From IMG/VR virus record IMGVR_UViG_3300033066_000592, positions 10,265 through 74,264 of that record: a stretch of DNA of 64,000 bases, one strand, 5' to 3'. Position 1 is the stretch's first letter. Every line of letters begins with the position of its first letter. The notes below the pieces were generated by a model, which did no database searches, had not been told where the DNA came from, and worked only from the letters and a program-made list of their open reading frames with translations. Source of the DNA: a virus (Duplodnaviria; Caudoviricetes). The position numbers and the translations under genes are program-made. This document shows positions 6,840-31,746 of this stretch, piece after piece.

Positions 6840-6919
6840 GTGCTTTCTCCTGTGCTCGTGAATCAGCGCCGTTCGCCACCGTGGCGTCGTGCGCCTATTG
6901 CGCCGCACAGGCTAGCACG

Positions 6920-14408: not shown

Positions 14409-16265
14409 ATGAATTCGGCGCAGCAGCAGAGCTGGCAAGAGCGCAGCAACCTAGATCCAGGTACAGCACAGCTTGTTGACGAACTGGCGATGGCCCTCGT
14501 CAACAAGCTGCATCCAGCGCAGCTGCGCAACCCTGAGTCGCCGCCTAGTGAGTCGGTGCTGGTCGATCCACAAGGGGAACCTCTGTCGAAGTCGTTCGAC
14601 GAGCCAAAAAGCTACTTCATCGATCCGAATGACATGCTGGGCGGGACGGGTATGAACTACGTCTACCCGCCCACGCAAGTCACGTACGAGACACTGCGCC
14701 TGCTGGCGGAGCGTGTGCCTGTTTGCTCGTGTGTGATTCTGACGCGTGTGAATCAGGTCGCGTCGTTCTGCCGAGCGCCGCGCAACAAGTATGACATCGG
14801 CTTCAAGGTGCGGCCGATCGGCAAGTTCGATGATCGCGAGCTGACACCGGCAGAGAAATCCAAGTCGGAGGACATTGAGACGTTCCTGCGTTGGACTGGC
14901 AACGAGTACAACGAAGGTCGCGATGACTTCCAGACGTTCGTGAAAAAGCTCGTCAGAGACCGCTTGTACTATGACCAGGCGTGCTTTGAGAAAGTCGCAT
15001 CACGTGACGGCGGCCTTGCCAGTTTTCATGCGATTCCGTCAGAGTCGATTCGCATCGCGATTCCGAAAAACGCGCAGGCGACACCTCCGACGGAGCACGA
15101 TGTACGCCACGACGTCAAGTACGTGCAGATCATCAACAGTCAGCCAATTCGCGACTACACGCATCGTGAGCTGGCTTTCCTGGTGGCTAACCCGCGCACG
15201 AATCTGCACGTCAACGGTTACGGATTCCCTGAGACAGAGATGATGCTGACCACGGCGATGGCGTTGCTGTGGGCAGAGGAGTGGAACCGCAACATCTTCA
15301 AGCAGGGCTCCACGCTCAAAGGCATCCTCAACGTCAAAGGCAGCTTCGCCAAGAACAAGTTCCTCGACCTGAAGCGAGAGTTTCAGACGAAGTTCACAGG
15401 CGTTCATAACGCGCACAAAAACGGCATCGTCAACGTCGACGAGCTTCAGTGGATTGCACTCCAGCTGAGCAATACGGAGATGGGCTTTCAGAGCTGGATC
15501 GAGTACCTGATCAAGCTCACTTGCGCGTTCTACCTCATCGACCCCGCCGAGGTGAATTTCGACCTGCGCGGTAGCTCCCAGCAGCAGCCGATCTTCATGT
15601 CTGGCAACGAAGCCCAGCAGAAGATCAGCCGTGATCGCGGCTTGTCGCCGTTGCTTCAGTACGTCGAAGACGCCATCAACAAGCACATCGTATGGCGTAT
15701 CGACCCACGCTATATGTTTGGGTTCGTCGGTCTCAACGCCAAGACGCAAGAGCAGGCGATCGAGCTGGCCAGCAAAGAGGTCAGTTCCAAGCTCACGCTC
15801 AATGAAGTACGCGCGCTGGACGATCTGCCACCTGTGAAGGGCGGCGACATCGTACTCAACGCGATCTACACAGGCCGCTTGGCTGCATTGGACCAGCAGC
15901 AGGCTGGCGGTGGCATGCCAGGAATGCCACCGGGCGCGGCACCAGGCATGCCTGGTCAACCTCAACCGCCACAGCCGGGTCAGCAGCAGCCTGGGAATCC
16001 TTACGACCAGCTACAGCCAGGCCCGCCGGCTGCCGAAGATAAGCAGGCCGGTGCAAACCTGAAAGCTGCGAGTCAAGGTAAAGATGAGTCGTCATCGAGT
16101 GGCGACTCATCTGTGCCTAAGAAGGTCCGGCGCGTGTTGATGCGCAACGATTGGGAAAACAGCTCTCTGTTCATGTCGCAGGACAAGCGCAGCGCAGCAG
16201 GCACAGACTTGGTGAAGTCTCTGTTTGGCCAGGATGCGACTGGCGATACGTACGACGAAGTCTAG
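14409..16265 (+). CDS. portal protein (SPO1/Twort-like HK97-family)
   Basis: VILTRVNQV, LYYDQACFEKV, YGFPETEM...WNRNIFKQGSTLKGILN and YLIDPAEVNF match this portal type. Pro/Gln-rich tail. Confidence 0.92.
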   Translation: MNSAQQQSWQERSNLDPGTAQLVDELAMALVNKLHPAQLRNPESPPSESVLVDPQGEPLSKSFDEPKSYFIDPNDMLGGTGMNYVYPPTQVTYETLRLLAERVPVCSCVILTRVNQVASFCRAPRNKYDIGFKVRPIGKFDDRELTPAEKSKSEDIETFLRWTGNEYNEGRDDFQTFVKKLVRDRLYYDQACFEKVASRDGGLASFHAIPSESIRIAIPKNAQATPPTEHDVRHDVKYVQIINSQPIRDYTHRELAFLVANPRTNLHVNGYGFPETEMMLTTAMALLWAEEWNRNIFKQGSTLKGILNVKGSFAKNKFLDLKREFQTKFTGVHNAHKNGIVNVDELQWIALQLSNTEMGFQSWIEYLIKLTCAFYLIDPAEVNFDLRGSSQQQPIFMSGNEAQQKISRDRGLSPLLQYVEDAINKHIVWRIDPRYMFGFVGLNAKTQEQAIELASKEVSSKLTLNEVRALDDLPPVKGGDIVLNAIYTGRLAALDQQQAGGGMPGMPPGAAPGMPGQPQPPQPGQQQPGNPYDQLQPGPPAAEDKQAGANLKAASQGKDESSSSGDSSVPKKVRRVLMRNDWENSSLFMSQDKRSAAGTDLVKSLFGQDATGDTYDEV

Positions 16266-16276
16266 GAGACACGACG

Positions 16277-19200
16277 ATGGTGATGGTAGCGATTAAGCCA
16301 CCGAGGCGCGTACGCAGATGGCTAGAGCGACTTGATGCGCCTGGCGCAGTGGATGCCGAGAGCTACCACGTCACGTTGTTGCACATCAAAGGCGCTGACC
16401 TGTCGAAAGCTGGCTTTGCCGCTCTGTGCGAAGCCGTCGCCACGACTTGTCGGACGCACAAGCACTTCGCAGCCAAGATCGGCGGCTTCGGTTATTTCCA
16501 GAACAGTCAGCCGAAGCCCTGTGTGTGGGCTTCTGTCGATTCTGTCGCTCTCACAGACGTGCGAAACAGCGTCCTTGCGCATCTCAAGGGCAGCGATGTC
16601 AAGGTCTCAGACGAGCACGGATTCACGCCGCACATGACGCTCGGTTACACAGAGCATGCGCGCAAGTGGAAGCCTGATCATGTGAAGCGCATGCCCGAGT
16701 GGACTGCGAAATCTCTGTACGTCGTGAAAGACGACGTCTGGACCCGCATGCCTCTGACAGAACCCGTGGACGATCGTATGCGTCTTGTGCCGACGTTTGA
16801 GTCAGGCTACCGCGACCTTGAAAAGCTATGGACCTGGCACAAGTCGCTCGTCGTCGTGAATGAATCCCTAGAGAAAGGCCGCAAGAAGGGCGGACAAAAC
16901 AAGACGCGCCGATACTTGCTGCGCATCGAGATGCCCGGTGGTTCACCGGGCAAGCCGAACTACCGCTACGTCTATCCAGATAAAGACGACGTCGTCAGCT
17001 TCGATCCAAAGACGGGCTTCAAACTCAAGCCAGGTCGCAGCATTGCCAAGATCGTCAACGAGAAGCTGTTCGGCGACTACGGCGTAGACTCGCGCACGGG
17101 CGATCCCTACGTGAAAGAGGGCCTGTTTTACGCATACGAGCCACGTGTCAGCACGTCGTACATGAAGCGCGCGTACGGTGAGCCGATTGCCACGGAGACG
17201 CTGAACAAGGTTCGGTTCTTCAAGTACAAGAAGGTTCACGGCTACACGGACGTCGACCTGGGCCCTGGCGTGGCCGCGTCAGGCTACCGGCTGCCACAGA
17301 AGCTGACGCAGCTTCAGATGACCGCTGACGAAGCGGCGGCGGCTCCGGGAAATCTCGCCGCAGAAGGCGCCGTCATCCTCAAACCAGAGGAGTTTGAAGA
17401 GAAGCGACCGTCGCCGTCTCACGACGTGGCACCTGTCGGCGAGAAGTCGATCGTCGTCGTACCAGAACAGACTCCTCTGTCGAAGTTGAACCTGGCTGAG
17501 CCGCTTCCTGACGACGTGGACCCGCTTCAGTACGCGGTGTCAGCAATCGAAGGCACGCGGCCTGGCCCTGGCAAAGCCGTTGTACGCCCGTTCAAGCAGT
17601 GGATGATCGACAAGTTCGGCAGCGAGTCAGGCTTGGTACAAGAGCTTGGCAATCGGCCGGCTACGACGTTGGTGACGCTCGGGCGTTTCAAGCCGACGCA
17701 GAAGAAAGTCCTCGCACGGCTCGAAGAAGAGTGGCGCGGCGTGATTCGGGGCATCGCCAAGCGTGCTGTGTCGGCGTATCGCGTGAGCAACGCATATCTT
17801 GCGGCCAAGGCATCAGATCAGGCCGCTGGCGTGCCGTACGAGAGTCAGAGTTCAGCAGCGCGCGGCTATATGCGTGAAGTCTTCAAAGAGGCCACGCAGC
17901 ACGGCAGTGAGCAGCTGCTGCGCCTCGCTCGCCAGTATGAGCCCACGGTTCATCACGATGATCGTTTCGACAAGTGGCTGTACGGCGCACTAGAGACGCA
18001 GATCGCGCGACACACCAAGCAAGAAGTCGAGCAGAGCAGCGGTGGCGGTGGAACGATCGAGCCGATCGTCAGCGGCGACATCGAAGAGGCCGCACGACGT
18101 ACAGCGCAGCAGGTTGACCTGCAGCCTGACGAAGCCTATGAGCTGAAAGAGGCTGGTCATGACCAGCTGTCAGGCGACGAACTGACGACGTTGTCGACTG
18201 TGACAGGCCCTGCGAAAGCGACACTGCTGCGCACGCTGCACTCGCCTGAGATGCCGCAAGCGTACAGACGAGTGCTGGCTGCGCGCCTGTGGCTCGATTC
18301 GCCTGAGTCAAGCGCCGCTGAGGAGCAGGCCATCGCCAAGCGGTCTGACAAAGGTGTGAAAGGGCCGCAGAGTTTCGAGCGCAACTACACAGGCAAGAAC
18401 GGTATCGCGTCGCGCTACAAGACGTGGATAGACCCAAAGACAGGCAAGCTTGTAGACGTGTCGAAGCTGAATCAGAGCCGACAAGCCGCCCTGTTGTCGA
18501 GCTGGTACGAAGCGGCTAAAGCGCATGTATTTCGGCAGCTGAGCGTACCGATGGCCGAGGCTCGCGCCACGATGCCAGACGTGCATCCGAGCGGCCTCTA
18601 TCAGAATCCGAAGCGTGTGCCGTTCACAGAGCAGCAGATCGCCGACAAGCTGCATTCAGTCGGCCATGGCACAGCTGAAGATGCCGCAGACTTGCTGGTG
18701 GACGCCGCGCTTGGTGGCGGTATGCGCGTGCTGACGCGCGAAGGCGCGATGGTCAAGCGTTGGCTGGAGCTAGAGACGAAGCTGGCGCGTGGCAATCGTC
18801 GACTGTTCTCAGAGCGCACGCAGCATCCGATTGCACAGGAGTCGCTGTCTGGGCCCGTGCCCGCACGTCCCGCGAAAATCGTCGTCATGCCTGAGAAGCC
18901 TGTGCTGGATAAGCACGGCGAGTGGCAGTCGCTACCTGTACATCCGACGCAGCGCTCAGCGCATCCGGCGATCGACTTCTTCTCGTCGACACCGAACCAG
19001 CAGCTTGCGCAACGGCTGGGCATCAATCTGCGACACATCAGTGGTCCAGAGACGGCCAGTGGTGTCTACGCGCATCAGAACGTCAGCATGGGCACCGCCG
19101 CGGAGCACACGCTTGCTGCTGCCAAGCTGGCACACGCGAAGCTGCTCAAGATGCAAGCACTCAAGCCTGCGCGTCTGCACGAAAAGCTAAAGCGCGCTCA

Positions 19201-20032
19201 GGCCGACGCAGATGCTCTAGACAAGCTAGGGTTGAGCCGCACGTCAGCAGGCATGACGTGGAACGAAGCCGGTCAGATCGGCAAGTTCTACAATGCTGTG
19301 CGTGCGCTGCACGCAGCTACGAACACGATCAAGCAAAAGCAGGCGAAGGTCCGTCTCGCCAAGAAGGCGTATCGCAAAGAGGCTGGCAAGGTCAGCATCG
19401 CGGCCAAGAATCCGTTCGACCGAAAGAAGGACAAGCTCGCGCATTCGGTCATGCGACATATCCTCGCTGTGAAACCGACGAGTACGCAGGAACTTGACCA
19501 GGCTGTGATGAACTGGATCGACGAGACGCACGACGTCGAGAGCAAGTCTGCACGGCGGACGTTTTTCAATGCCGTGAAAGAGCATCTACGCAACGAGAAA
19601 GCCGTCAGCAGTGGTGGCGACTTGGCGAAGCATGAAGCCGAGCTGAAGAGTCACGCGCCGACTGCACAGGAAATAGCAGCGCACAAGGCCGCAGCTGATC
19701 ACGCAGCGAAAGCTGGAGCTGCTCTTAGCGCCGTGAAAGTCGCAGGCAAACCGTTCGGTAAGGAAGTCGTGATGCGCTACATCAGCAGCAAGAATCCGGC
19801 TGAGGTTCATGACGAGGTGCGTGCTTCGCTTCAGAATCTTGCATCAAGCGTACATACCGACAAAGAGCTTGCCGAGTTCGAGCTGAACCGTCGCAAGACG
19901 GCCGGCAACACGCTCGTCAAGTCGATGGCTGAGGCTTCGTTCGAGAGCTTCGGTGCAGCGATCGATGCGTTTGATTTCGCGCTTACGATGACCGATTCTG
20001 CACGTATGGCTGCCGAAACGGTCGTGGTGTGA
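16277..20032 (+). CDS. 1251-aa multidomain protein: N-terminal 2H phosphoesterase, central sigma-70-like region, C-terminal shared helical module
   Basis: RBS AGGAG before ATG 16277. HVTL (16367) and HMTL (16631) 2H motifs; IRGIAKRA...QHGSEQLLRLARQYEP...RFDKW is sigma region-2-like; shared module at 19430-19606. Confidence 0.85.
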   Translation: MVMVAIKPPRRVRRWLERLDAPGAVDAESYHVTLLHIKGADLSKAGFAALCEAVATTCRTHKHFAAKIGGFGYFQNSQPKPCVWASVDSVALTDVRNSVLAHLKGSDVKVSDEHGFTPHMTLGYTEHARKWKPDHVKRMPEWTAKSLYVVKDDVWTRMPLTEPVDDRMRLVPTFESGYRDLEKLWTWHKSLVVVNESLEKGRKKGGQNKTRRYLLRIEMPGGSPGKPNYRYVYPDKDDVVSFDPKTGFKLKPGRSIAKIVNEKLFGDYGVDSRTGDPYVKEGLFYAYEPRVSTSYMKRAYGEPIATETLNKVRFFKYKKVHGYTDVDLGPGVAASGYRLPQKLTQLQMTADEAAAAPGNLAAEGAVILKPEEFEEKRPSPSHDVAPVGEKSIVVVPEQTPLSKLNLAEPLPDDVDPLQYAVSAIEGTRPGPGKAVVRPFKQWMIDKFGSESGLVQELGNRPATTLVTLGRFKPTQKKVLARLEEEWRGVIRGIAKRAVSAYRVSNAYLAAKASDQAAGVPYESQSSAARGYMREVFKEATQHGSEQLLRLARQYEPTVHHDDRFDKWLYGALETQIARHTKQEVEQSSGGGGTIEPIVSGDIEEAARRTAQQVDLQPDEAYELKEAGHDQLSGDELTTLSTVTGPAKATLLRTLHSPEMPQAYRRVLAARLWLDSPESSAAEEQAIAKRSDKGVKGPQSFERNYTGKNGIASRYKTWIDPKTGKLVDVSKLNQSRQAALLSSWYEAAKAHVFRQLSVPMAEARATMPDVHPSGLYQNPKRVPFTEQQIADKLHSVGHGTAEDAADLLVDAALGGGMRVLTREGAMVKRWLELETKLARGNRRLFSERTQHPIAQESLSGPVPARPAKIVVMPEKPVLDKHGEWQSLPVHPTQRSAHPAIDFFSSTPNQQLAQRLGINLRHISGPETASGVYAHQNVSMGTAAEHTLAAAKLAHAKLLKMQALKPARLHEKLKRAQADADALDKLGLSRTSAGMTWNEAGQIGKFYNAVRALHAATNTIKQKQAKVRLAKKAYRKEAGKVSIAAKNPFDRKKDKLAHSVMRHILAVKPTSTQELDQAVMNWIDETHDVESKSARRTFFNAVKEHLRNEKAVSSGGDLAKHEAELKSHAPTAQEIAAHKAAADHAAKAGAALSAVKVAGKPFGKEVVMRYISSKNPAEVHDEVRASLQNLASSVHTDKELAEFELNRRKTAGNTLVKSMAEASFESFGAAIDAFDFALTMTDSARMAAETVVV

Positions 20033-20033
20033 C

Positions 20034-22220
20034 GTGCATCTGCATTACGAGGACATCAGAGCTGACCTTGCGTACCTGAGCCCGTTTCCTGTGGAAGCGG
20101 CTAGCGTGCGCAAGGTCGTACAGGGTTATGAAGGCGTGTTGTACAGCGCCGGCCGTGCCTATATGTACACGCTGAACGGTCGGGGACTTCGCTTCGTAGG
20201 CGTGCCTGATGAAGCCGCAGACGACGCTGCGCGAGCGCACGATCTGTCGATGGACGCAGAGCGCGCGTTGTCGCTGGCCGAGAATCGTCGTGTGTCAGCG
20301 GCTGAGGCCAGCGAAGCCGTACAGATGAACGGCGCTACTGTCGGCCAGGTGCTGATCGTCAAGGCGAGTCCAGGCGCGCACCACGCAGGTTACATGCGGC
20401 GTGATCCACGCACAGGTAAGTTGGAGCAGGTGTCGCCGCTTGGTTACACGCCAGAGAAGCCACCGCCGCGCGAGACGAAGCATTATGCGGCAGTGAGCGT
20501 GAATGCGGATGTCGAGCTGGAGTCTGACGACGAGCTTGGGCATCAACTGCTCGCGCATCTCATCAAGCGACAGCCCAAGAATGAAAAGCAGCTTGCCGCC
20601 GCTGTCGAGAGCTTCGTTGACGACAGTTTCGACATCGAGAACGCAGCTGCTCGTAAGAAGTGGCTGAAAACGATTCACAGCTATCTGACGGAAAACGGAA
20701 TCACAGAGACGGCAGACGCCAATGACGAGGAAGCCGAAGGTGATGCCGAGCAGGATGCGTGGAGCAGTCGCAAGGCACAGGCAAAGCTTCAGATTCCTGT
20801 CACGTTCAAACCACGTGGCACCAAGCTGCTTGTGAATGGGCAGCCCGTCTCTGTATCGGCCGATGTCGAGCAGGCGTGCTATGCGTACGCCAAGCGCTTC
20901 CTCGTCAAGGGCGGTACCGTCAAAGACCAGGCGCGCTTCGTCAAGAACTTCGAGTCGAGCTTGCGCAAGCTCGGCGTGCCCAAAGGTGACATTGGCTATA
21001 AGCACTTCGTTGTTCAAGCGAAGAAAGACCTCGCGGCGCCTGTCAGCAAGAAGGGTCCGAAGGACGAGAGCCCGCAAGCACGGCCTGACCTGTACGTGAA
21101 GCAAGACGGCGTTATGACGCGCGTGATTGCTGCAACGCTTCCGACAGGTGGCTTCTACACGGGCAAGAAGGGCTACGGCACGTGGGTTCCTCCTGTACGT
21201 GAAGAAGACCTTGTGCTCAACGTGTCGCCAGGCGGAGCGCCAGCAGGTTGGCGTGGTAAGGTCATCAACGATCCGTCGAAAGATTTCTACCTGACATGGG
21301 AACACCCTGTCGCCAAGAAGCGCGGTTACGTCTACATGAGCCGCAAGCAGGCGGATCTGGAGAAGTTTTTTGCCTGCACAGTGCTCAGCAAGAAGTTGCA
21401 AGACATCTCCGACGATGTGTTCAAGGACATCACGAGCAAGAGCACACCGTCAGCCACCAAGGCCGCGGCGTTGTGCGTGATGCTCATAGATCAGCATCAC
21501 TTCCGTGTGGGCAACGAGACGTTCGCCAAGCAAGGCACGTACGGTGTTGCGTCGTTTCGTGCCAAGCACGTGAAGATCGACGGCACGAAGGTTACGTTTG
21601 AGTTCGTTGCCAAGAAGCAAGAGCCGTGGAAGCGCGAAGTCGACTTCGCTGGTATGCCGTCAGCTCTCGCATTCCTGAAGACGTGCATGAAGGGCAAGAA
21701 GCCTGACGATCGGCTCTGGTCTGGCACTGACTGGTCTGCATCGTCGAAAGACGTGAACGAATATCTGGCGCCGTACTCAGCTGATGGCGTCAAGATCACG
21801 GCGAAGTCATTGCGCACGTACCATGCGAATCGGCACATGACGGGCTACCTGCGCAAGCTGGAAGAGGCGCAGACGGCCTACAAGCTCACCGATGTCGAGG
21901 TGCGCAAGCTGTACAAGGGCGTCAAGCTCAAAGGCAAAGACGCCGCGCTGCTCACGCGCAAAGCCAAGAAAGACGGACCGAAGCTGTCGGACTTCTTGGG
22001 CTTCGTGCCGTATGTCGGCGCCAAGGGCAAGGGCAGCGCCATGACGGGCGTGCTGCCGTCTGTGGCAGCAAAGATGGGCCACACGACGGGTGCCTGCCGG
22101 AATAACTATATCGATCCTGTCGTGGTGACACGGTTCGCTGTACTGCACGGCTGGGACGATCGAACACCAAAAGAGCGCAAGTCTCGTGAAGACCTGCCAG
22201 GGTATGAGCCCGATGCGTGA
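20034..22220 (+). CDS. type IB DNA topoisomerase domain fused to a ~400-aa N-terminal extension
   Basis: FRVGNE, TYGVASFRAKHV, FVAKK, TAKSLRTY, KMGHT and CRNNYIDP together give the R-K-R-H-Y catalytic set of TopIB. Confidence 0.9.
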   Translation: MHLHYEDIRADLAYLSPFPVEAASVRKVVQGYEGVLYSAGRAYMYTLNGRGLRFVGVPDEAADDAARAHDLSMDAERALSLAENRRVSAAEASEAVQMNGATVGQVLIVKASPGAHHAGYMRRDPRTGKLEQVSPLGYTPEKPPPRETKHYAAVSVNADVELESDDELGHQLLAHLIKRQPKNEKQLAAAVESFVDDSFDIENAAARKKWLKTIHSYLTENGITETADANDEEAEGDAEQDAWSSRKAQAKLQIPVTFKPRGTKLLVNGQPVSVSADVEQACYAYAKRFLVKGGTVKDQARFVKNFESSLRKLGVPKGDIGYKHFVVQAKKDLAAPVSKKGPKDESPQARPDLYVKQDGVMTRVIAATLPTGGFYTGKKGYGTWVPPVREEDLVLNVSPGGAPAGWRGKVINDPSKDFYLTWEHPVAKKRGYVYMSRKQADLEKFFACTVLSKKLQDISDDVFKDITSKSTPSATKAAALCVMLIDQHHFRVGNETFAKQGTYGVASFRAKHVKIDGTKVTFEFVAKKQEPWKREVDFAGMPSALAFLKTCMKGKKPDDRLWSGTDWSASSKDVNEYLAPYSADGVKITAKSLRTYHANRHMTGYLRKLEEAQTAYKLTDVEVRKLYKGVKLKGKDAALLTRKAKKDGPKLSDFLGFVPYVGAKGKGSAMTGVLPSVAAKMGHTTGACRNNYIDPVVVTRFAVLHGWDDRTPKERKSREDLPGYEPDA

Positions 22221-23547
22221 CGACTACACGAAATATTTTCTGAGCCGCGTAGACGGCAGTGAAGACGCCTACAACGGCTACCTACAAGCGCCTGGTGACG
22301 ACTTGGTGTTTGTGGCCGAGCGGCACGGCCGAGAAGACGTCGTGACGAAATCGACGGTGCTGATGAAGGCCGAGAAGTATAAGGTGTTGGGAGTAGCATT
22401 TGGCTATGCGAAGCACATTTCCTATCAGCGTCTAGATCCCCGCACTGGAAAGATGGTGCAGGTGAAAGGCGGTCGTGATACGCCGATAGGAAAGACGTCG
22501 CTGACACCGCACCACTTCGACATTACGGTGCAGAAGAAGCATGGTCTCAGTGACGATGAGACGGCGATGGCCGTACTTCGCTACGTCGCGCAGAAGAAAG
22601 TCCGCACAGAAGGCGAGCTGCACGAGGCTGTGCAGGAGTTCGTGGAGAAAAATTACGACTCCGAAAGCTCAGAAGCTCGGGGCAAATGGGTGAGCACGAT
22701 TCTGAAAGCCCTGTTTCACCACAAGGCTGTACAGGTCACGCATCCAGGTGACGACATTGCGTACGGCAATATGCGCGTGCGTGATATGGCCATGGTGAGC
22801 CAGTGGGTACAGGGCTCCAACAACACCGTCGGTTCTGTCAGGCTCCGTGTCGGTGTTGCGAAACTGTTTAAGCAGGATATCGAGCGCGTCACGGAACGCG
22901 CTCGAAAGAATTCATCTGACAAGAAACGTTTTGAGCGCATGTTGGCTGACGCCAAGGCCGACAAAGACCTCGTCGCTTCTGTGGAGCGCGTAGCGGCGCT
23001 GTCACAGTCTGCTTACAAGGGTCAAAAGACGGTCGTGCTGCATCGCGCTATCAGCAAGGAACAAACAGCTGAGATTCGGAAACAGCTAAAGCTGAAGCCC
23101 GGTGTGACTGCACGTGGGAAGGTCATTACGATACCCGTCGATAACGTGACGTCGTTGTCAGAGAATGCTGCTGCGGCACATTCGGCGTTCGCCGGTTTTG
23201 ACGGCATGACTGTACGGGTCGAGGTACCCGTGTCTGCCATCGTGATGTCGTATCGGGCAATGCCGTCCACGATGTCGCTAAGCGGCGACACTGAGTGGGA
23301 GGTAGTTGTCGCTACGCCAGGTAAGCTTCATGCTACGATCGTAGCCGACAGATATCTTGGTGAGAATTCGTTACCGGAAGCTCCTATTAAATACCAAAAA
23401 TCTTCTTTACGGGCTTTGGCTGAAAAAGAACGTGCACGTTTTGAATCTAGGTACACAAAATTAAATCCCAAGCAGCACAGTATCTACAGCACCTATTGGA
23501 AAAAAACGCCTGCGGAATTCCTGCTCGAAGAAGATGTGTTTTCATGA
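22213..23547 (+). CDS. 444-aa protein with shared helical module and C-terminal ADP-ribosyltransferase-like domain
   Basis: VVLHRAI (R), VTSLSE (S-x-S) and TEWEVVV (E-x-E) follow the R-S-E clade ART pattern. Start at ATG 22213 overlapping the upstream stop. Confidence 0.65.
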   Translation: MRDDYTKYFLSRVDGSEDAYNGYLQAPGDDLVFVAERHGREDVVTKSTVLMKAEKYKVLGVAFGYAKHISYQRLDPRTGKMVQVKGGRDTPIGKTSLTPHHFDITVQKKHGLSDDETAMAVLRYVAQKKVRTEGELHEAVQEFVEKNYDSESSEARGKWVSTILKALFHHKAVQVTHPGDDIAYGNMRVRDMAMVSQWVQGSNNTVGSVRLRVGVAKLFKQDIERVTERARKNSSDKKRFERMLADAKADKDLVASVERVAALSQSAYKGQKTVVLHRAISKEQTAEIRKQLKLKPGVTARGKVITIPVDNVTSLSENAAAAHSAFAGFDGMTVRVEVPVSAIVMSYRAMPSTMSLSGDTEWEVVVATPGKLHATIVADRYLGENSLPEAPIKYQKSSLRALAEKERARFESRYTKLNPKQHSIYSTYWKKTPAEFLLEEDVFS

Positions 23548-24065
23548 AAACAAAGCCCATAGCGCTCACAGTAGACATCGACGCAAACGGTGGTAACGAA
23601 TGGCTGCACGAGATTCGTCGCAGGCGCGCGGCGCAACAGCGCATGCAGAAGGCGCTACCCCAACCGCAAGCCGAGAAGCCGGCCAAGCAGCTTGAGCCTG
23701 CGAACAAGCACCAGGGCACCAAGGCTGCGAAAGTCGCGGCCAAAGGCAGCGGTCGGCCTCGCTACACCTACCCGACCGAGAAGAAGTCGGCACAGGCTGT
23801 GGCAGCCAAGCAGGAAGCTGTGATGGTCGCACCTGATGGCGTCGATCCACAAGCATTTGCCACCAAGCTGGGCCTGTCCCTGTCGACGCTCAAAGGCACC
23901 GTACAGGAGTTTGTGAGCGAGCCGAAGATGGGTGGCCGTGAGGGCTTCGCCAAGTTCATGCGCAGCACCGTAGGTAAAGCGTTCATGACGCGCAACGGCG
24001 TGGGTGACGACTACTTCGGCAAGCTGTACGATGTGTTCACGAAACCCCCACAGCAGGAGAACTGA
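23544..24065 (+). CDS. hypothetical head-associated protein
   Basis: ATGA overlap; MQKA motif followed by a Lys/Pro-rich linker and GRPRYTYP. Confidence 0.65.
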   Translation: MKTKPIALTVDIDANGGNEWLHEIRRRRAAQQRMQKALPQPQAEKPAKQLEPANKHQGTKAAKVAAKGSGRPRYTYPTEKKSAQAVAAKQEAVMVAPDGVDPQAFATKLGLSLSTLKGTVQEFVSEPKMGGREGFAKFMRSTVGKAFMTRNGVGDDYFGKLYDVFTKPPQQEN

Positions 24066-24066
24066 G

Positions 24067-24579
24067 ATGCCGATGCAGACACCGACCATTGCAGAACGCA
24101 TGAGTGCCGCCCTTCACGACGATGACGATGCCATCGAAAAGGGCGGCGCCGACAAGCTGAAGGTGAACAAGGTGCCGTTTCCGCACAAGAAGCGCACGGG
24201 CCCCACAACGGTGCGGCCTGGCGGCAATGTGCCGAAGCACGGCAACACGCCGGCCCAGCTTAAGGGTAAGATCAAGAAAGGCGACGAGGCCGAAGGCGTC
24301 GATGAGACCGACGGCAGCGTGCTGACGCCGCCCGAAGGCGTTGTCGAGAAGGGCAAGGGCGCGTCCTGCAAGAGCTGCGGCAAGTATGGCGCGCTGTGCA
24401 AGTGTGAGGGCAGCATGCAAAAAGGCGAGGACACCGAAGACAAGCCGGCGCGTGTCGGAGCTTCGGATTTCGTCAAGAGCATGCACGGCATGACCGACGA
24501 TGACATCGCCCGCGCCGCGCAGTCCGGTATCCTCGGTCTTGGCGGCACGCCGGCCTCGCTGGGCTTCCCCTCCGCGTAG
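24067..24579 (+). CDS. low-complexity internal head protein candidate
   Basis: RBS AGGAG; strongly C/G-ending codons; repeated IEKG, VEKG, MQKG and FVKS motifs; CKSC...CKC. Confidence 0.7.
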   Translation: MPMQTPTIAERMSAALHDDDDAIEKGGADKLKVNKVPFPHKKRTGPTTVRPGGNVPKHGNTPAQLKGKIKKGDEAEGVDETDGSVLTPPEGVVEKGKGASCKSCGKYGALCKCEGSMQKGEDTEDKPARVGASDFVKSMHGMTDDDIARAAQSGILGLGGTPASLGFPSA

Positions 24580-24594
24580 TACCCCTCGCTTCTG

Positions 24595-24625
24595 TTGCCT
24601 AGAGCCGTTCTGGCTCGACTATACT
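24595..24625 (+). promoter_or_regulatory. possible internal sigma70-type promoter (TTGCCT-N19-TATACT)
   Basis: TATACT at 24620-24625 lies 10 nt before ATG 24636. The -35 spacing is long and there is no Shine-Dalgarno sequence. Confidence 0.35.
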
Positions 24626-24635
24626 GCCCCACATA

Positions 24636-27600
24636 ATGCTGACAGGCAAAACGGTGTCAGGCGGCAAGCTGCGCGTGCGCGTGCAGCCGCTGCCCTACGC
24701 GCATCTCCAGCAAGTGGCTGACGGTTTGACGCACGTGTTTACGACACGTATGCGAGAGCTGGAAGCCAAACTGAACGCGCGTCTCGCTCACACGGTAGAG
24801 CGTCTACAGCCAGCCGTGCTCATCGTGTCTGACGAACATCTGAGCAAAGCGGCTTCACCTAAGCAGAATGCATCTGGTCAAGCACGCGCGAAAGCCGGCG
24901 AGGGTCAGACGCGCACGTATCAGCGACCGCCAGGCGGTGTGAAGACGCCAGGCCAGCGCGGCGGCAAGTTCTACTACACGGCGACAGGCAAGCTTCGTTA
25001 CGGCGAGAAGCCGCAGCCGCAAGAACGTGAAGCCACGCACGAAGAGGTGCGCCAGCATTTTCAACACTTCCGGCCAACGCCATTCATGTCGAATTCTCGG
25101 GAGCACAAAGACCTGCTCCAGGCGATTCGTGATCTGAAGACCGGTGGCTTCGATGAGACAGATGACACGCTGCTCGGCTGGTGGGAGAAACACCAGAAGC
25201 AGTTCAACAAGCTATGGGGCCTGTCTGACGAGGATGTGGCCGGCGATCTGTCTGCGATCCAGCTACAAGACAACGACGGTCGAGAGCTGTCATATGAGCA
25301 GGCGGTTCATGAATTCCTGATGGATCAAGACTGGGGTGACGCCTCTGAAGCTGACGTAGAAGAGGCGCTGCGCGATGTCATGACGCGCTATCAGAATGCG
25401 CTACGTGACCCGGCCGTCATGAAGAAGGCCGAAGCCATCGCAGCGCAAGTGGACCAGCAGGTGTATGGCTGGTTCACGAACATGGAAGCGACAGCCGATC
25501 ACTATGACGGCCTGGCTGCGTCGCTGTCCGGTGATCCTGACGTCGCTGTTGCGAACATGACAGCGGCGCTTGGCGCTATGGAGCTGGTTTTCAAACCAGG
25601 CAAAGGCCAGAAAGCTGGCGATCTGACTGGTGCGATTGCGCCGAACAGCGGCTGGCTCGACGAAGGCGGATACCTATCGACGACAGGCGCCGATCGCGTA
25701 GCGAGTCTCAACGTCGGACAGCTTCTCGCTATCTACGCTGGCGCCAGGCTCAACGAGGCTTTCGATCCAGACACAGCGACCTACGACACGCTTCACGGTG
25801 GCAAAGGCCCGCAGTCAAAGCTGGCCGAAACTGTGCGCAAGCTCATCGCGCAGAAGCTGAAGCTGGACCCTGCGGGCGCGGTCATGACGACGGTGCTAGA
25901 TGGCGTTCACGCAACCATCGAGCGTCTGGCTACGACGTTCTCGAATGCCAACACAGGCCGTGACACGTCAGGTCTCGCCCGCAAGTTGCTCGACATGCCG
26001 AGCGACAAGCTCACCAAAGGTGGCGAGGGCGTTCAGAAGCTGATCGAGAAGGCGCAGAACTTCGAGCAGCTGAAGGCCGACGCGCTCAAGGCCCGTGAGG
26101 ACGAATCCTGGTCTGTGCCCGACACGATGCTCGAAGGCAACGTCGGCGGGAAGAAGATCAATCCGATCACAGGCAAACCGTTCGACCTGTTCAAGCACCA
26201 AAAACAAGCCATCAACTGGGCCAAGACTGTCAAGCGTGGGCTTCTTGCAGACGATGCCGGTATGGGCAAAACGGCCGAAGTGATTGGCATTTGCGAGTCG
26301 CTGAAGCAAGACGGCAAGATCAAGCGCGGCATCTTGTTCCTACCACCGTCGCTTCTTGCACAGTGGCCAAAAGAGATCATGAGCTTCGCGCCAGAGATGG
26401 CAAAAGGCGGGCGCATCCTGAACCTGTCTGGCCTGTCCCTGGAAGCTCGCAAGGCCGCGCTTCAGAGCGACATGGCCAAGAACGCCGAGTACATCCTCAT
26501 GAGCACGGGCTCACTTGCCTATGGCAAGTCCGAAGACGGCGAGGAGGATGGCGGTATGGATGAGGGCTTGGTGCAAGCTCTCGCGGATCTCGACGGCGCT
26601 GTGTTCATCGACGAAGTACATCAGGGCGGCTTCAAGACAGGTAGTCAGGGCGTCGCTGGTACGAAGGATTACAGACCGGGTAGTGTTAAGCATGAGATCA
26701 CGAAACGCATCATCGGTGAGCGTGATTACGCGTTTGGCATGACAGCTACACCATGTCCAAACAACCCGATGGACCTGTATCACTTGATAAACCTCTTTCA
26801 CCCAGGGTGTGTTGGGGATCAGGCTGAGTGGGAAGAGAAGTTGTCGGGCGTGAAGTGGGACGGCCATTCGTGGCGCATACCGCATCCTGAGAATGTGCAA
26901 GAGATTAACCGTCGTATTAAGCCGTTCGCGCTACACCGTTTGATCACGGACAAAGTTGTTGAAGAAGACATGGGCAAGCAACTCCCGCAGCTCACGTCTA
27001 ACGCGATAGACTTAGAGCCAGCGACGGCAAAGTGTCCCGTAACAGGTTGGAGTCAGCTTGATTACCTGCGACCTGGCGGTGTTTGCGATGCTTTGGCGCA
27101 GAAACGCTTAGAGATCATCAACGCGAAGCGTGAAAAAGCCGGAAAGCCTGTGTTGGAGGGTGTAGACGCAGAGACTACCGTGCGCATGATCCACATGGGC
27201 CTAGAGCGCCAGGCCGCTATCAGTCCAGAGCTGATAGATCCGCGCTACCGCGGTCCTGCCGCCAAGCTCGATCGCGTTGTTGCCGATGTCATCGCCCACT
27301 TCTCAGGCGGCGCTGGTCAGGAAGGCAAGCCGATCGTTCTGTTCGACAGCTTCCCTCGCAAGTCTTTTCCCGTCGTCAAGCGCAAGCTTGCGGAAGCCGG
27401 CATCGACGTGAGCGGCATCGGCGAGATCATGGGTGGCAAGTCAGCGCAAGAACGCGCTTTCATGCAGGATATGCTCAACGGTTATGAGCGTGTGAATCCT
27501 GCGACGAAAGAGAAGGAGTTCGTACCAGGTAAGCTCAAGGTGCTGCTCGTAGGTACGAAGGCTGGCGGCGCTGGTCTGAACCTACAAAAAGCGGCGAATC

Positions 27601-29018
27601 GCTCGATGTTTTTGAGCGAGCCGTGGGACCCCGCGAGCAAGCGCCAAGCACTTGGCCGCGTGTGGCGCACAGGGCAGAAGTCGCACTGTACCGCTGACAA
27701 CTACCGCATGATCGGTACCTACGATATGCGTGTGGAAAATAAGCTCGGCACCAAGCAGCTCATGACGACTGCTTTGCTGGGCGACGCTGACGTGGACTTC
27801 AATCAGAGTGCTGACGAGCACATCCAGCGTCTGACGGGCCGCGAACTTGGCGGCGAGAACATGAGCACCGAGCAGATGGCGGCTCTGTTGGCAAACGCTG
27901 GTAACTTCAGTATCGACGCCGATTCGCTGGGCGATGACTTCGATGACGTGAGCGAAGACTCGTTTGACGATTCTGAGTTCATGGACAAGAAGCTCAAGCG
28001 GTCAGAAGAAAAGAAGCTGGAGGCTGACCCAGCAAAGCGCGCCGCGCTTCAAAAGAAGGCGCCACAACTGGCCGAAGTCGTCGACATGAGTGCCGAGTCT
28101 GACAAGTGGCACGCAGAGGCGATGCGTCAGACGGCCAAACAGCGCTATGACATCGCGATGATGCAAGCGAAGGTCGCCGAGACGGCCGGTGACAAGCAGA
28201 TGGCCGACAAGGCACAGAAAGCAGCGGAGCGCGTTAAGGCAGCCTTTCCAGAAGCTTTCGGCGCTGTCGAGCGTAAAAAGCAGGAAGTCGACACGGACGA
28301 CCTGTTCGCCAAAAAGCAGCAAGCGAAAACCGAGTCGGTACAGCGTCAAGCGCAGACGGTAAACGAAGGCAAAGAGCCCACGCGCGGGGACATGAGCCTT
28401 GCTGCGGCCAACTATGTTGCGCGCAACAAAGATCACTTCAGTACCAAGCAGCGCAAGGCCGCGCAAGAAGTGATCACACAGGCAGAGCGCCTGGGCATCG
28501 ACAGTGATACGTGGCGACCTAACGAGGAGCGGCTTGACCGGCTCGCCAAGCACAAGGGCCAGATGCCCAAGATGGGCGACGTGCTCAAAGACCTCAAGCA
28601 GCGGTGGGCGGAACACAACTGGCTTGAAGCAAACGGTCACACGAAAGAAGCAAAGGCCGCACGCAAAGAGATCGATCAGCAGCATGGCTGGCTGCCTGAA
28701 GAGTTCGATGACGTGGCGTCTCAGCAGCAGCAAGAGATGGCGCACAAAGGCATTGGCGTGAAGCCGAAGAAGCCGGAAGGCTTTGTGGCACCTACGGCGT
28801 TTCCGGCCAAAAACCCCTTCAAGAAAAAAGAAGACCCTCTCGCTTACGACGCGATGGAACACCTGCTTGCGAAGCAGCCCAAGACGTATGACGATACGCA
28901 GGCAGCGCTACTCCAGCACGTCAAGAAGACGATGAAGGGCACACCCGAAGCGCTTAACAAGTTCGCCACGCAGGTGCACAAGTACCTGATCAAGAACAAG
29001 GGTTTGACCTATGGATGA
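24636..29018 (+). CDS. 1460-aa SNF2-family ATPase/helicase with long N- and C-terminal extensions
   Basis: LLADDAGMGKT, PPSLLAQWPKEI, IDEVH, MTATPCPNN, GTKAGGAGLNLQKA and QALGRVWRTGQ are SNF2 motifs I-VI. Shared module at 28833-29006. Confidence 0.92.
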   Translation: MLTGKTVSGGKLRVRVQPLPYAHLQQVADGLTHVFTTRMRELEAKLNARLAHTVERLQPAVLIVSDEHLSKAASPKQNASGQARAKAGEGQTRTYQRPPGGVKTPGQRGGKFYYTATGKLRYGEKPQPQEREATHEEVRQHFQHFRPTPFMSNSREHKDLLQAIRDLKTGGFDETDDTLLGWWEKHQKQFNKLWGLSDEDVAGDLSAIQLQDNDGRELSYEQAVHEFLMDQDWGDASEADVEEALRDVMTRYQNALRDPAVMKKAEAIAAQVDQQVYGWFTNMEATADHYDGLAASLSGDPDVAVANMTAALGAMELVFKPGKGQKAGDLTGAIAPNSGWLDEGGYLSTTGADRVASLNVGQLLAIYAGARLNEAFDPDTATYDTLHGGKGPQSKLAETVRKLIAQKLKLDPAGAVMTTVLDGVHATIERLATTFSNANTGRDTSGLARKLLDMPSDKLTKGGEGVQKLIEKAQNFEQLKADALKAREDESWSVPDTMLEGNVGGKKINPITGKPFDLFKHQKQAINWAKTVKRGLLADDAGMGKTAEVIGICESLKQDGKIKRGILFLPPSLLAQWPKEIMSFAPEMAKGGRILNLSGLSLEARKAALQSDMAKNAEYILMSTGSLAYGKSEDGEEDGGMDEGLVQALADLDGAVFIDEVHQGGFKTGSQGVAGTKDYRPGSVKHEITKRIIGERDYAFGMTATPCPNNPMDLYHLINLFHPGCVGDQAEWEEKLSGVKWDGHSWRIPHPENVQEINRRIKPFALHRLITDKVVEEDMGKQLPQLTSNAIDLEPATAKCPVTGWSQLDYLRPGGVCDALAQKRLEIINAKREKAGKPVLEGVDAETTVRMIHMGLERQAAISPELIDPRYRGPAAKLDRVVADVIAHFSGGAGQEGKPIVLFDSFPRKSFPVVKRKLAEAGIDVSGIGEIMGGKSAQERAFMQDMLNGYERVNPATKEKEFVPGKLKVLLVGTKAGGAGLNLQKAANRSMFLSEPWDPASKRQALGRVWRTGQKSHCTADNYRMIGTYDMRVENKLGTKQLMTTALLGDADVDFNQSADEHIQRLTGRELGGENMSTEQMAALLANAGNFSIDADSLGDDFDDVSEDSFDDSEFMDKKLKRSEEKKLEADPAKRAALQKKAPQLAEVVDMSAESDKWHAEAMRQTAKQRYDIAMMQAKVAETAGDKQMADKAQKAAERVKAAFPEAFGAVERKKQEVDTDDLFAKKQQAKTESVQRQAQTVNEGKEPTRGDMSLAAANYVARNKDHFSTKQRKAAQEVITQAERLGIDSDTWRPNEERLDRLAKHKGQMPKMGDVLKDLKQRWAEHNWLEANGHTKEAKAARKEIDQQHGWLPEEFDDVASQQQQEMAHKGIGVKPKKPEGFVAPTAFPAKNPFKKKEDPLAYDAMEHLLAKQPKTYDDTQAALLQHVKKTMKGTPEALNKFATQVHKYLIKNKGLTYG

Positions 29019-29409
29019 TCACGCGATTTTCGAACTCGTGCGCGCTGACGGTAAGAAGCGCGCACGAGTGACGACACCGAAAGACACGCTGCGCGTGCAC
29101 GACGCCGACGAGCTTCGTGCACAGCTTGATCACTACAGCAAGGCCAATGGTGTGACGTTCCTACGTCACGTGGTCGTTGACTCGCAGCAGGCACGTCTTC
29201 AGTACGTCAAGTACCTGCGACCGGCTTTGCGCTACTACTGCAAAAAGTTTGGCGTACAAGTGCCCGACTGGCTCAAGGCCGATACAGCTTTCTCAACGCT
29301 GTCCGCACACGAGCAGCACACGCTGTTCGGTGAAACGGTCAAGTTTCCTGTGCGTGAATTCGCAGAGGTGAACACGTCTGGTTCGAAGCAAGGAAAGATC
29401 GCGTCATGA
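29011..29409 (+). CDS. hypothetical protein
   Basis: 132 aa, coupled to neighbours on both sides. Confidence 0.65.
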   Translation: MDDHAIFELVRADGKKRARVTTPKDTLRVHDADELRAQLDHYSKANGVTFLRHVVVDSQQARLQYVKYLRPALRYYCKKFGVQVPDWLKADTAFSTLSAHEQHTLFGETVKFPVREFAEVNTSGSKQGKIAS

Positions 29410-30110: not shown

Positions 30111-30961
30111 GCGAGTCACCGTTTGCACGTGTGGTTCTGCACCAGAAACCTACAAAGCTGGAAACGCCAGATTCTGGCCGCACAGGCTTGGTGCGCATTG
30201 CGACGTACGAGGGCGGCACCAAAGCTGTGGTCCGTGTGCAGAGTCACGAGCTTGAAGGTAAGCGCACCAAGGGCTTCACCAAGCAAGACGGGCTGCCTGT
30301 GAAATCACAGCCCGTCAAAGACGCGGCCTACTACGCACTGGCGAAGCTGTTGCGTTGCGACGACATCGTGCCCGAAACGTTGCTGAAGATTACGCGACGC
30401 GGCAACGACGTTTCATACCAACGATTCGAGCGAGCACTGACACTGCGTGACCTAGAGCCGGCTTTACACAAGCTGGAAAAGGGCAGCGACGAGTGGCGTG
30501 CTGCGGCGGCACAAGCCATGAAAGTCGTCTCTGACGAAGACTGGCTCAAGGCAGCGCTGCTCGGCCTTGTTGCGGCTGACCGAGACAGGCATCTCAAGAA
30601 CTTTGGCGTGCGTGTCTTGGTTGAAGGAAACCGCATCGTCTATAGGCTCGTGCTGTGGGACAACGGCGTTTGTCTCGGACAAGCATTCAAGAAGTATCGC
30701 AGCGTCGTGCATGAGATCCTGCATGCTCGCAAACTGGTGTTCGGTGACGTCTTGGCGCGCGTAGACGACATACGTGCTGACGACGTGACAGACTTACTGG
30801 TTACGAACCGCATCCACCCGACGGAAGCACAGCAAGCCGGCAAGCGGCTTGACTTCGTGCGCCGATACCCCCACCGGATGCCTTGGAACATACTCACAGG
30901 CATGCCCGGCTATCCTGCCTATCGAAATTTCTTCAGAGGCGGGGTAGATTGGCGGGGATGA
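30107..30961 (+). CDS. PI3K/PI4K/HipA-like kinase-fold protein
   Basis: DAAYYALAKLLRCDDIVPET, ADRDRHLKN (DRH-x-x-N catalytic loop) and LVLWDNG (DxG). GTG start at 30107 overlaps the upstream TGA. Confidence 0.75.
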   Translation: MSESPFARVVLHQKPTKLETPDSGRTGLVRIATYEGGTKAVVRVQSHELEGKRTKGFTKQDGLPVKSQPVKDAAYYALAKLLRCDDIVPETLLKITRRGNDVSYQRFERALTLRDLEPALHKLEKGSDEWRAAAAQAMKVVSDEDWLKAALLGLVAADRDRHLKNFGVRVLVEGNRIVYRLVLWDNGVCLGQAFKKYRSVVHEILHARKLVFGDVLARVDDIRADDVTDLLVTNRIHPTEAQQAGKRLDFVRRYPHRMPWNILTGMPGYPAYRNFFRGGVDWRG

Positions 30962-31746
30962 GTACAGCACACGAGGTACAGCGTCTTCTTGAGGAGGACG
31001 AATTTTCGCTGTGGGTTCCGCCTACCGCGACGTCAGGCTTTACGCTCCTGTCGAAAGCTGGCGAAGTTCCTGCTGACGATGCCCCGCGCATCATTCACGG
31101 CTTCTGCACGACAGAGCACGAAGACCGGCAACAGGAAATCGTGATCGCCAAGGGCCTGGACTTCGCACCGTTCATCAAGCATGGCTGGTTCAACGACAAT
31201 CACTCGCCACGAACGGCCGACGTGTTGGGCTGGCCTATCGAAGCTCGTCTCTACGAAGACAAAGGCTGGTACACGAAAGGCCAGCTTCTGAAGGGCAAAA
31301 AAGCCGCTGACGACGTATGGGAACTGGCTGTCGCCCTTTTCAAGAGTGGTAGCCCTCGACGCCTGGGCTTTTCGATCGAAGGCAAAGCGACGTTGCGCAA
31401 TGCAGCAAATCGCATTGTCAAAGGCGTTGTGCGTCATGTCGCCATCACGCGCGATCCTGTGAACCCGAACTGTCAGCTCGACGTGCTGTGCAAGGCTTTC
31501 GCGCCGTCGGAAGAAATCGAGCGCGCCTACACGATCAGCAAGGCCGCGATGATCGGCCATCAACATCCCGTTATGCACGGTCACGCAGCTCTTGTGCCTG
31601 CAAACTTGGAAGCTGCACGTATCATCCGACGAAAACAAAAACGTTTGTCGAAGGCAGACGTAGAACATCTCGTACGTCAAGAGATGCAAATGTCCGACGC
31701 CTCCGTGATGCGCGTCGTGGACTGGATCATGTCGCAACAACAGTGA
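30958..31746 (+). CDS. prohead (capsid maturation) protease
   Basis: IIHGFCTTEHEDRQQEIV, GWFNDNH, LGFSIEG and VAITRDPVNP match the HK97/herpes-fold protease (His and Ser motifs). Confidence 0.9.
   Translation: MSTAHEVQRLLEEDEFSLWVPPTATSGFTLLSKAGEVPADDAPRIIHGFCTTEHEDRQQEIVIAKGLDFAPFIKHGWFNDNHSPRTADVLGWPIEARLYEDKGWYTKGQLLKGKKAADDVWELAVALFKSGSPRRLGFSIEGKATLRNAANRIVKGVVRHVAITRDPVNPNCQLDVLCKAFAPSEEIERAYTISKAAMIGHQHPVMHGHAALVPANLEAARIIRRKQKRLSKADVEHLVRQEMQMSDASVMRVVDWIMSQQQ

Follow-up and report, generated by a model that had tools for sequence, protein, structure and literature searches.

In a 64,000-nucleotide stretch of a tailed-phage genome (IMG/VR virus record IMGVR_UViG_3300033066_000592), four large proteins encoded side by side with the head genes carry copies of one homologous module, with a sequence similarity far above chance. 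The stretch, hereafter the window, comprises bases 10265-74264 of a single contig of 74,264 bp and reads as a tailed phage by its gene content; coordinates below are window positions, and features lie on the plus strand unless stated otherwise. By sequence comparison, the module is a real and new domain family of a few related, uncultured myophages whose capsids are SPO1-like, and it is specific to the 14.7-kb portal-to-protease cassette of this small clade. It is tentatively proposed to be a shared adaptor of virion cargo, which would act in protein docking or retention inside the head; we give this putative role somewhat less than an even chance.

A homologous module in four large cassette proteins

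The four copies are distributed over host proteins with different enzymatic payloads. Copy 1 (19394..19606) spans residues 1040-1110 of a 1251-residue giant protein of the 2H/LigT type (residues 1082-1152 if the longer open reading frame, ORF, at 16151-20032 is used), copy 2 (20493..20705) spans residues 154-224 of a topoisomerase IB protein, copy 3 (22519..22731) spans residues 112-182 of a 453-residue protein that resembles ADP-ribosyltransferases (ARTs), and copy 4 (28797..29015) forms residues 1388-1460, the last 73, of an SNF2 helicase protein. All four peptide stretches quoted in the first-pass annotation of this DNA are present, at its coordinates, in plus-strand ORFs. It had described two of the copies as C-terminal and two as N-proximal, which holds for the N-proximal copies 2 and 3 and for the terminal copy 4, but copy 1, of C-terminal type in its sequence, stops 134 residues short of the C-terminus. 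Its size estimate of about 60 residues likewise stands in part: the module is a discrete unit, but its length is about 70 residues when relatives are aligned. The tetrapeptide KNPF noticed ahead of copies 1 and 4 is real, and in relatives all C-terminal-type copies are preceded by [KRES]-N-P-[FIV]. It belongs to the domain itself, where it forms the N-terminal strand of the AlphaFold2 model described below.

Homology between the copies was evaluated by pairwise comparison and by profile searches. With BLASTP, copies 2 and 3 score 65.9 bits over 128 residues, copies 1 and 2 score 45.1 bits and copies 1 and 4 score 39.7 bits, the weakest pair being copies 2 and 4 (27.3 bits). In a leave-one-out test, a hidden Markov model (HMM) was built from three copies and run against all 1,062 ORFs in a six-frame translation of the 74-kb genome. 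The left-out copy was recovered each time, at E 2.1e-14 for copy 1, 5.8e-14 for copy 2, 7e-11 for copy 3 and 4.2e-8 for copy 4, with the best unrelated ORF at E about 0.3. The proposal that the four stretches are one shared module is therefore upheld. Profile searches, including those with a profile of 11 copies, detected no fifth copy in the 74-kb genome. Other candidates were rejected. A weaker echo (TVQEFVSE) had been suggested in the protein starting at 23544, but hmmsearch with the 11-copy profile gave nothing there at E<20, and an hhalign comparison with that protein's own family alignment returned a probability of 0.4% over 13 columns. The C-terminal tail of the protease is alike by eye to a partial module and is not among the E<20 matches, and the idea that the module copies the scaffold C-terminal domain (scaffold mimicry) received an hhalign probability of 0.2%.

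The module had been called unrecognised, and searches of Pfam, PHROGs and PDB sequences agree, with no match over it. In Pfam-A, the full proteins gave no match on the module at E<=0.01, and the module alone gave at E<=10 only noise from unrelated families (best E 0.033). PHROGs had nothing over the module, and the best match in a PDB profile search was NusB at E 0.042. Among 1.84 billion representative proteins, 10 matched the module profile at E<=1e-3, four of them the window's own proteins or close relatives and four orthologues in other uncultured phages, namely the SNF2 proteins P0009 and P0010, the 2H giant protein P0013 and the 314-residue protein P0012. The other two, P0011 and P0014, are tandem-repeat proteins that each match partially 5-7 times, and they were discarded as spurious. 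A second search, with the 11-copy profile against 5.8 billion clusters, returned 11 matches, all from the same clade. The spurious ones aside, matches are confined to a few related uncultured phages.

In the relatives, the module always lies within the same cassette. One of them, L001, is 78% identical. The 20-kb locus L003 has the order giant protein, topoisomerase, two small genes, SNF2, three genes of unknown function, protease and capsid protein, and the 15-kb locus L004 has portal, a 179-residue gene, a 1043-residue protein, two small genes and SNF2. Orthology mapping shows that the portal-cargo-protease order is common to the window, L003 and L004. The topoisomerase and 453-residue ART-like genes are absent from L004; the cargo set thus varies, and each large protein keeps the module.

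Predicted fold, mobility and upstream leader of the module

Alignment A3, which holds 11 module copies with those of relatives included, was used as input to AlphaFold2. In A3, the unit opens at its N-terminus with a short segment that has a single conserved hydrophobic position and houses the KNPF, continues with a near-invariant Asp and three amphipathic helices and ends with [GK]-A-V. The resulting model, with a mean predicted local distance difference test score (pLDDT) of 84.9 and a predicted template modelling score (pTM) of 0.72, consists of a strand, three helices (14-26, 31-45 and 51-67) and a strand, with single-residue strand bridges at 2 and 71. A compact three-helix domain is therefore predicted, as the first reading of the sequence had supposed. 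A 249-residue model of the N-terminal part of the topoisomerase protein is poor overall (pLDDT 58), with helices 167-179, 184-198 and 204-220 and a strand at 224-226 modeled at pLDDT 70-81. Since the module is folded there between low-confidence linkers, it behaves as an independent domain.

Judged from the model, the fold is winged-helix-like without a canonical wing, and the resemblance is modest. Foldseek searches of PDB and BFVD with the module model gave nothing at E<=1e-3. In a VIA-align comparison with 48,161 PDB representative chains, the 50 listed matches are mostly winged-helix domains with Z 4.4-6.0, a range that the alignment tool rates as possibly just a common arrangement. They include MukF/JetA kleisin, Hel308, MecI, H1/H5, MCM, ORC, the Fur family and recognition elements of ribosomally synthesized and post-translationally modified peptides (RiPPs). 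Protein-language-model neighbours are winged-helix families as well, weakly (0.82-0.87). The modest likeness to the winged-helix domains of MukF/JetA, Hel308, H1/H5 and MecI would lie in the three-helix core and the flanking strands, with superpositions at Z 5.1-6.0 and a root-mean-square deviation of 2.5-4.3 Å over 59-68 residues. Unlike these domains, with which it has no sequence similarity, the module has no beta-hairpin wing after helix 3. In the AlphaFold2 model, one short strand is found there and pairs with the N-terminal strand, and copy 4 reaches its stop codon 6 residues past this strand. The module is also near neutral, with a net core charge of -2 to +4 and a pI of 6.1-9.8 across the 11 copies; the net charge of helix 3 is -1 to +4, and it is positive in 10 of the 11. 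Outside the core, conservation is highest in the two edge strands, with h-x-h (h, hydrophobic) at the N-terminus and [GK]-A-V at the C-terminus. Conserved residues at the surface are few, namely two aromatic/His positions on helix 1 and the [GK]-A-V strand.

The suggestion that the module is portable is borne out by its N-proximal, internal, C-terminal and tandem sites, and by a block insertion together with an ART. In the topoisomerase and 453-residue proteins, some 110-155 residues separate it from the N-terminus; in the window helicase it is at the extreme C-terminus, whereas the L003 helicase (P0009) has two tandem copies. In the L003 giant protein (P0016), the module is internal and is followed by a further topoisomerase-IB-like domain. 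P0015, a close relative of the window giant protein, is about 350 residues longer, and its extra part is made up of a hairpin leader, a module copy that has diverged and a DRAT domain. This part aligns with the 453-residue protein, so a unit of leader, module and ART has moved as a block. Residues 1278-1455 of P0016 are a second topoisomerase-IB-like catalytic domain, which exists besides a separate 779-residue topoisomerase gene in L003.

A tree of 17 module copies leaves 9 of its 14 branches unresolved, the deep ones, so the order of duplications is not derivable. With close relatives set aside, a window copy tends to fall nearest to the corresponding copy of another phage. Weakly informative as it is, the tree points to old duplications retained by selection.

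Upstream of the module, alignment reveals a hairpin-like leader of ~20 residues, at 20376..20432 in the topoisomerase protein (about 20 residues ahead of copy 2) and at 22408..22473 in the 453-residue protein, ahead of copy 3. In these N-proximal proteins its core consists of an aromatic residue and Arg, then D-P-x-T-G-K, and the 249-residue model predicts it, at low confidence, as a beta-hairpin. The leaders of the 453-residue protein and of the P0015 insert are near-identical, with an exact match over a 24-residue core, whereas their modules are strongly diverged. Looser variants of the leader, one of them of R-Y-x-Y-P type, were observed at 16949-16978, 18413-18460, 23751-23774 and 24960-25004, in the giant protein, the helicase and the 23544 protein.

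Each leader is immediately preceded by a hydrophobic strand that terminates in h-x-K, with A, G or S as the next residue (20349-20369, 16847-16879, 22354-22374 and 24816-24854), and this motif is kept in orthologues. Such motifs are likely to be prohead-protease sites of a polyprotein-like cargo, a putative assignment in which cleavage would occur after the Lys. The motif is found at residue 198 of the giant protein, between the 2H domain and the remainder, at residue 108 of the topoisomerase protein, at residue 59 of the 453-residue protein, at residue 10 of the L004 1043-residue protein and at about residue 70 in all three helicase orthologues. Motifs at 198 and 526 of P0015 bracket the inserted unit, and P0012 begins exactly at the post-cut start expected for the topoisomerase protein. 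An h-x-K-A pattern also occurs about 40 residues into the capsid protein (near 33320) and in the 23544 family (23643-23660). Because both the cut-site-like motif and the leader are located upstream of the module, the module is probably retained in the mature proteins.

Possible roles of the module and comparison with known systems

If the module is an adaptor of virion cargo, the cassette enzymes, which are of effector or anti-host type (2H, topoisomerase IB, ART-like and SNF2), would travel inside the head and be injected alongside the DNA. Their precursors would be cut inside the prohead at the motifs upstream of the leader, leaving the module on the mature enzymes. Each of these unrelated enzymes would bind one common partner through the module, be it the scaffold core, the inner capsid wall, the portal or other cargo, and this binding would load the enzymes and hold them together during head assembly. 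The adaptor role is favoured because the module is restricted to one cassette and clade and is present on every large precursor whatever its payload, and because its fold has been kept at 18-30% identity through apparently old duplications. It also holds the architectural place that MuF occupies in MuF-effector fusions, and there is a precedent in T4, whose diverse internal proteins have only a capsid-targeting sequence (CTS) in common and are united by this targeting element alone (PMC3012670). A narrower version, in which the module is a folded, position-independent domain for head loading and retention that works with the leader and docks the fused enzymes to the scaffold core or inner wall, is unlikely in our estimate.

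Several observations weigh against an adaptor. The paralogous copies are only 18-30% identical in pairs, and the module diverges faster than the catalytic cores to which it is fused (27% vs 61% identity for the topoisomerase core; 26-42% vs 54-64% for the SNF2 core) and faster than the leader (27% vs 69% between the window and L003 topoisomerase proteins). Its conserved positions look structural, as helix caps and hydrophobic core, without an evident conserved docking surface, and folds of its class often serve in DNA binding. The proteins at 23544-24065 and 24067-24579 and a predicted free 2H fragment are without the module. Its probable retention on mature proteins argues against a simple packaging tag, and by analogy the motif and leader, sited like known targeting peptides, may be the true loading signal. 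Megablast against phage records found no cultured relative, and the homologues come solely from metagenome assemblies.

In the main rival reading, the module would be an accessory nucleic-acid-binding winged helix, keeping the enzymes on the packaged or incoming phage genome, or on host DNA after injection, and unrelated to head loading, a putative function that we regard as rather unlikely, though open to argument. Helicases and replication proteins carry winged-helix domains as additions of this sort, and the winged-helix-like fold class would allow such a role. The listed structure matches, mostly winged-helix and many of them DNA-binding (Z 4.4-6.0), and the weak language-model neighbours (0.82-0.87) are consistent with it, as are the topoisomerase IB and SNF2 payloads that act on nucleic acids, the positive helix 3 in 10 of 11 copies and the apparent persistence of the module on mature proteins. 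However, the Z scores fall within the common-arrangement range, the core is near neutral (net -2 to +4, pI 6.1-9.8) and no beta-hairpin wing follows helix 3. A generic DNA binder would also be expected outside one phage cassette, to which the module is confined, and the module is present on the ART-like enzyme as well, whose DRAT-type relatives modify proteins.

The modules might instead bind one another, or bind the hairpin leader by strand addition, giving a hetero-oligomeric cargo complex that would be loaded or ejected as a unit. RiPP recognition elements bind peptides in this way and are among the fold matches (Z 4.4-4.6), but these peptide-binding matches are no better than other winged helices. 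The presence of one copy per large precursor, the tandem copies in one helicase and the conservation of the edge strands (h-x-h and [GK]-A-V) would suit such a complex, whereas the hairpin is not packed on the module in the 249-residue model, where confidence is low; on balance this putative arrangement is quite improbable. A passive spacer, spread by cassette duplication and payload swapping and reflecting ancestry without a common binding function, is improbable too. Cassette-wise shuffling, as in the P0015 insert and the P0016 fusion, fast evolution of the module and conserved positions that look structural are in line with a spacer. Yet the fold and hydrophobic pattern are kept at 18-30% identity in every lineage and position, tandem copies included, and the tree, with its deep branches unresolved, points to old duplications kept by selection.

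To our knowledge, the selection of large enzymes for head packing is understood in very few phages, the short peptide of T4 being the main example. The T4 CTS is a short (~10-residue) N-terminal peptide that is removed by the prohead protease. The module is like it in being one element on unrelated proteins, which in T4 are head-packaged anti-host proteins (IPI-III and Alt, the latter an ADP-ribosyltransferase), and in the placement of the genes within the head-assembly programme (PMC3012670; PMC5512222). It differs in being a fold of ~70 residues that is found at N-proximal, internal and C-terminal sites, with cut-site-like motifs upstream, and that is probably retained. A closer analogue of the CTS in this phage is the cut-site motif with the hairpin leader rather than the module.

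MuF, or SPP1 gp7, is a constant domain that is frequent in phage DNA-packaging modules and fused to variable effectors (PMC5576092). A likeness is seen in the structural neighbours of the ART-like payload, one of which is a viral cluster whose members carry Phage_Mu_F in 99% and DRAT in 37% of cases. The cassette module is smaller, winged-helix-like, present on several proteins per genome and found at either end; Phage_Mu_F had no match in any cassette protein (E<=0.01) or on the module alone (E<=10).

Iyer and colleagues argue that phage-type polyvalent proteins, for which 2H, ART and SNF2 domains are typical, are carried in the capsid and delivered together with the phage DNA (PMC5512222). 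They are large multidomain proteins of the head region that combine 2H, ART and SNF2 with uncharacterised globular LPD domains, and their packaging is proposed to be followed by processing into units (PMC5512222). In the window, the 2H protein (1251 residues), the SNF2 protein (1460 residues) and the ART-like payload are all encoded between portal and protease, as in that class, and relatives fuse effectors in one chain (2H with DRAT in P0015; 2H with topoisomerase IB in P0016). Differences are that the window's domains are spread over four genes with the same module on each, and that processing here would use the prohead protease. Among the families of LPD1-40 present in the Pfam-A copy searched, none matched the module. 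Piya and colleagues are said to have reported in 2017 that P1 packs DarB into its head, aided by partner proteins, and we know of no module shared by the P1 cargo proteins. DarB is an antirestriction protein and the archetype of polyvalent proteins with a methylase and an SF2/SNF2 helicase (PMC5512222). The cassette helicase differs from it in that Pfam detected no methylase domain in the protein, and homologues of DarA and Hdf were not recognised.

Altogether, the system belongs to a known kind, in which a constant element is placed on variable head-delivered effectors, as with the T4 CTS, MuF toxins and polyvalent LPDs. What is new is the element and the way it is deployed, with a single folded winged-helix-like domain on each of four large genes of a cassette, at either protein end. 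If the module is a handle for cargo, it would add a second way of selecting cargo, one of a different structural kind. As a head-loading domain, it would make the cassette a plug-and-play system for injected cargo and could be used to tag foreign proteins so that they are loaded into phage heads. If it binds nucleic acid, it would be a lineage-specific way to keep injected enzymes on the incoming genome. The cassette is a compact test case that combines the module, the hairpin leader and candidate protease sites; the family is tiny, being found in a few uncultured phages, which limits its impact for now.

Host proteins, cassette borders and neighbouring genes

The first host gene (16277..20032) encodes the 1251-residue giant protein with its N-terminal 2H/LigT phosphoesterase domain (Pfam 2_5_RNA_ligase2, E 1.9e-14); the start at 16277 is the database gene call, and P0007 is the 1251-residue form. 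The second (20034..22220) encodes a protein of 728 residues with a topoisomerase IB core at 437-615 (Pfam Topoisom_I, E 1.4e-27). A literature search for virion topoisomerase IB in phages found nothing relevant. The third (22186..23547) encodes 444-453 residues with a likely start at 22213, relatives beginning at the MRD... position, and its C-terminal half is ART-like. The fourth (24636..29018) encodes the 1460-residue SNF2-family helicase (Pfam SNF2-rel_dom, ResIII and Helicase_C; phrog_62, E 2.4e-49). No zincin-like peptidase domain was detected in the cassette proteins with Pfam.

The payload of the 453-residue protein looks like an ADP-ribosyltransferase of the R-S-E type. This putative assignment is based on its alignment with the DRAT-bearing insert of P0015 (BLASTP E 3e-32), the insert domain being called DRAT by Pfam. 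Its neighbours in the ESM Atlas include DRAT, ADPrib_exo_Tox and viral MuF-ART clusters, with TM 0.50-0.58, to be taken as a lead only. In the C-terminal half (22750-23400), Arg 287, S-x-S at 323-325 and E-x-E at 370-372 can be picked out by eye.

The cassette is bordered on the left by the portal gene (14409..16265; Pfam Phage_portal, E 1.4e-19; phrog_12, E 2.9e-48) and on the right by the prohead (head maturation) protease (30883-31746; phrog_1028, E 8e-45), followed by the scaffold (about 32175-33140; phrog_15087, E 3.4e-4) and the major capsid protein (33205-34680; phrog_752, E 2e-84), which is 32-34% identical to the capsid proteins of SPO1-like Herelleviridae. In Bacillus phage SP-10 (Herelleviridae), the portal, protease, scaffold and capsid genes are directly consecutive, so the cassette, which fills the 14.7-kb gap between portal and protease in the window, is an insertion into the head module. 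It contains the four large genes and two small ones (23544-24065 and 24067-24579, between the third and fourth host genes), then three further genes of unknown function before the protease. The protein of 24067-24579 is conserved, with an invariant four-Cys cluster (C-x-x-C ... C-x-C) that suggests a zinc ribbon, and has no module. A 132-residue protein (29011-29409), whose start overlaps the helicase stop codon just past copy 4, is the best-conserved gene product of the region, with 54-61% identity to L003 and L004 vs 45-49% for the helicase, portal and capsid protein.

When the head region was compared with phage records by megablast, nothing matched, and a related-locus search with the portal as query returned no viral contig. 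The module alignment contained no stretch of sufficient conservation for such a search. The sequencing runs containing this genome are those of the source study, with small shares in viral metagenomes; none of those listed is RNA. Upstream of the portal, a ParB-like protein is encoded at 11236-12342 (phrog_2159, E 1.5e-12; Pfam ParB_N under the cutoff), a domain type that is common beside virion genes in polyvalent-protein contexts (PMC5512222). A 311-residue gene located between protease and scaffold in L003 (13355-14290 of that locus) has homologues at two places in the window, a 340-residue gene on the minus strand (5886-6908) and an internal part of a 905-residue protein (41651-44368).

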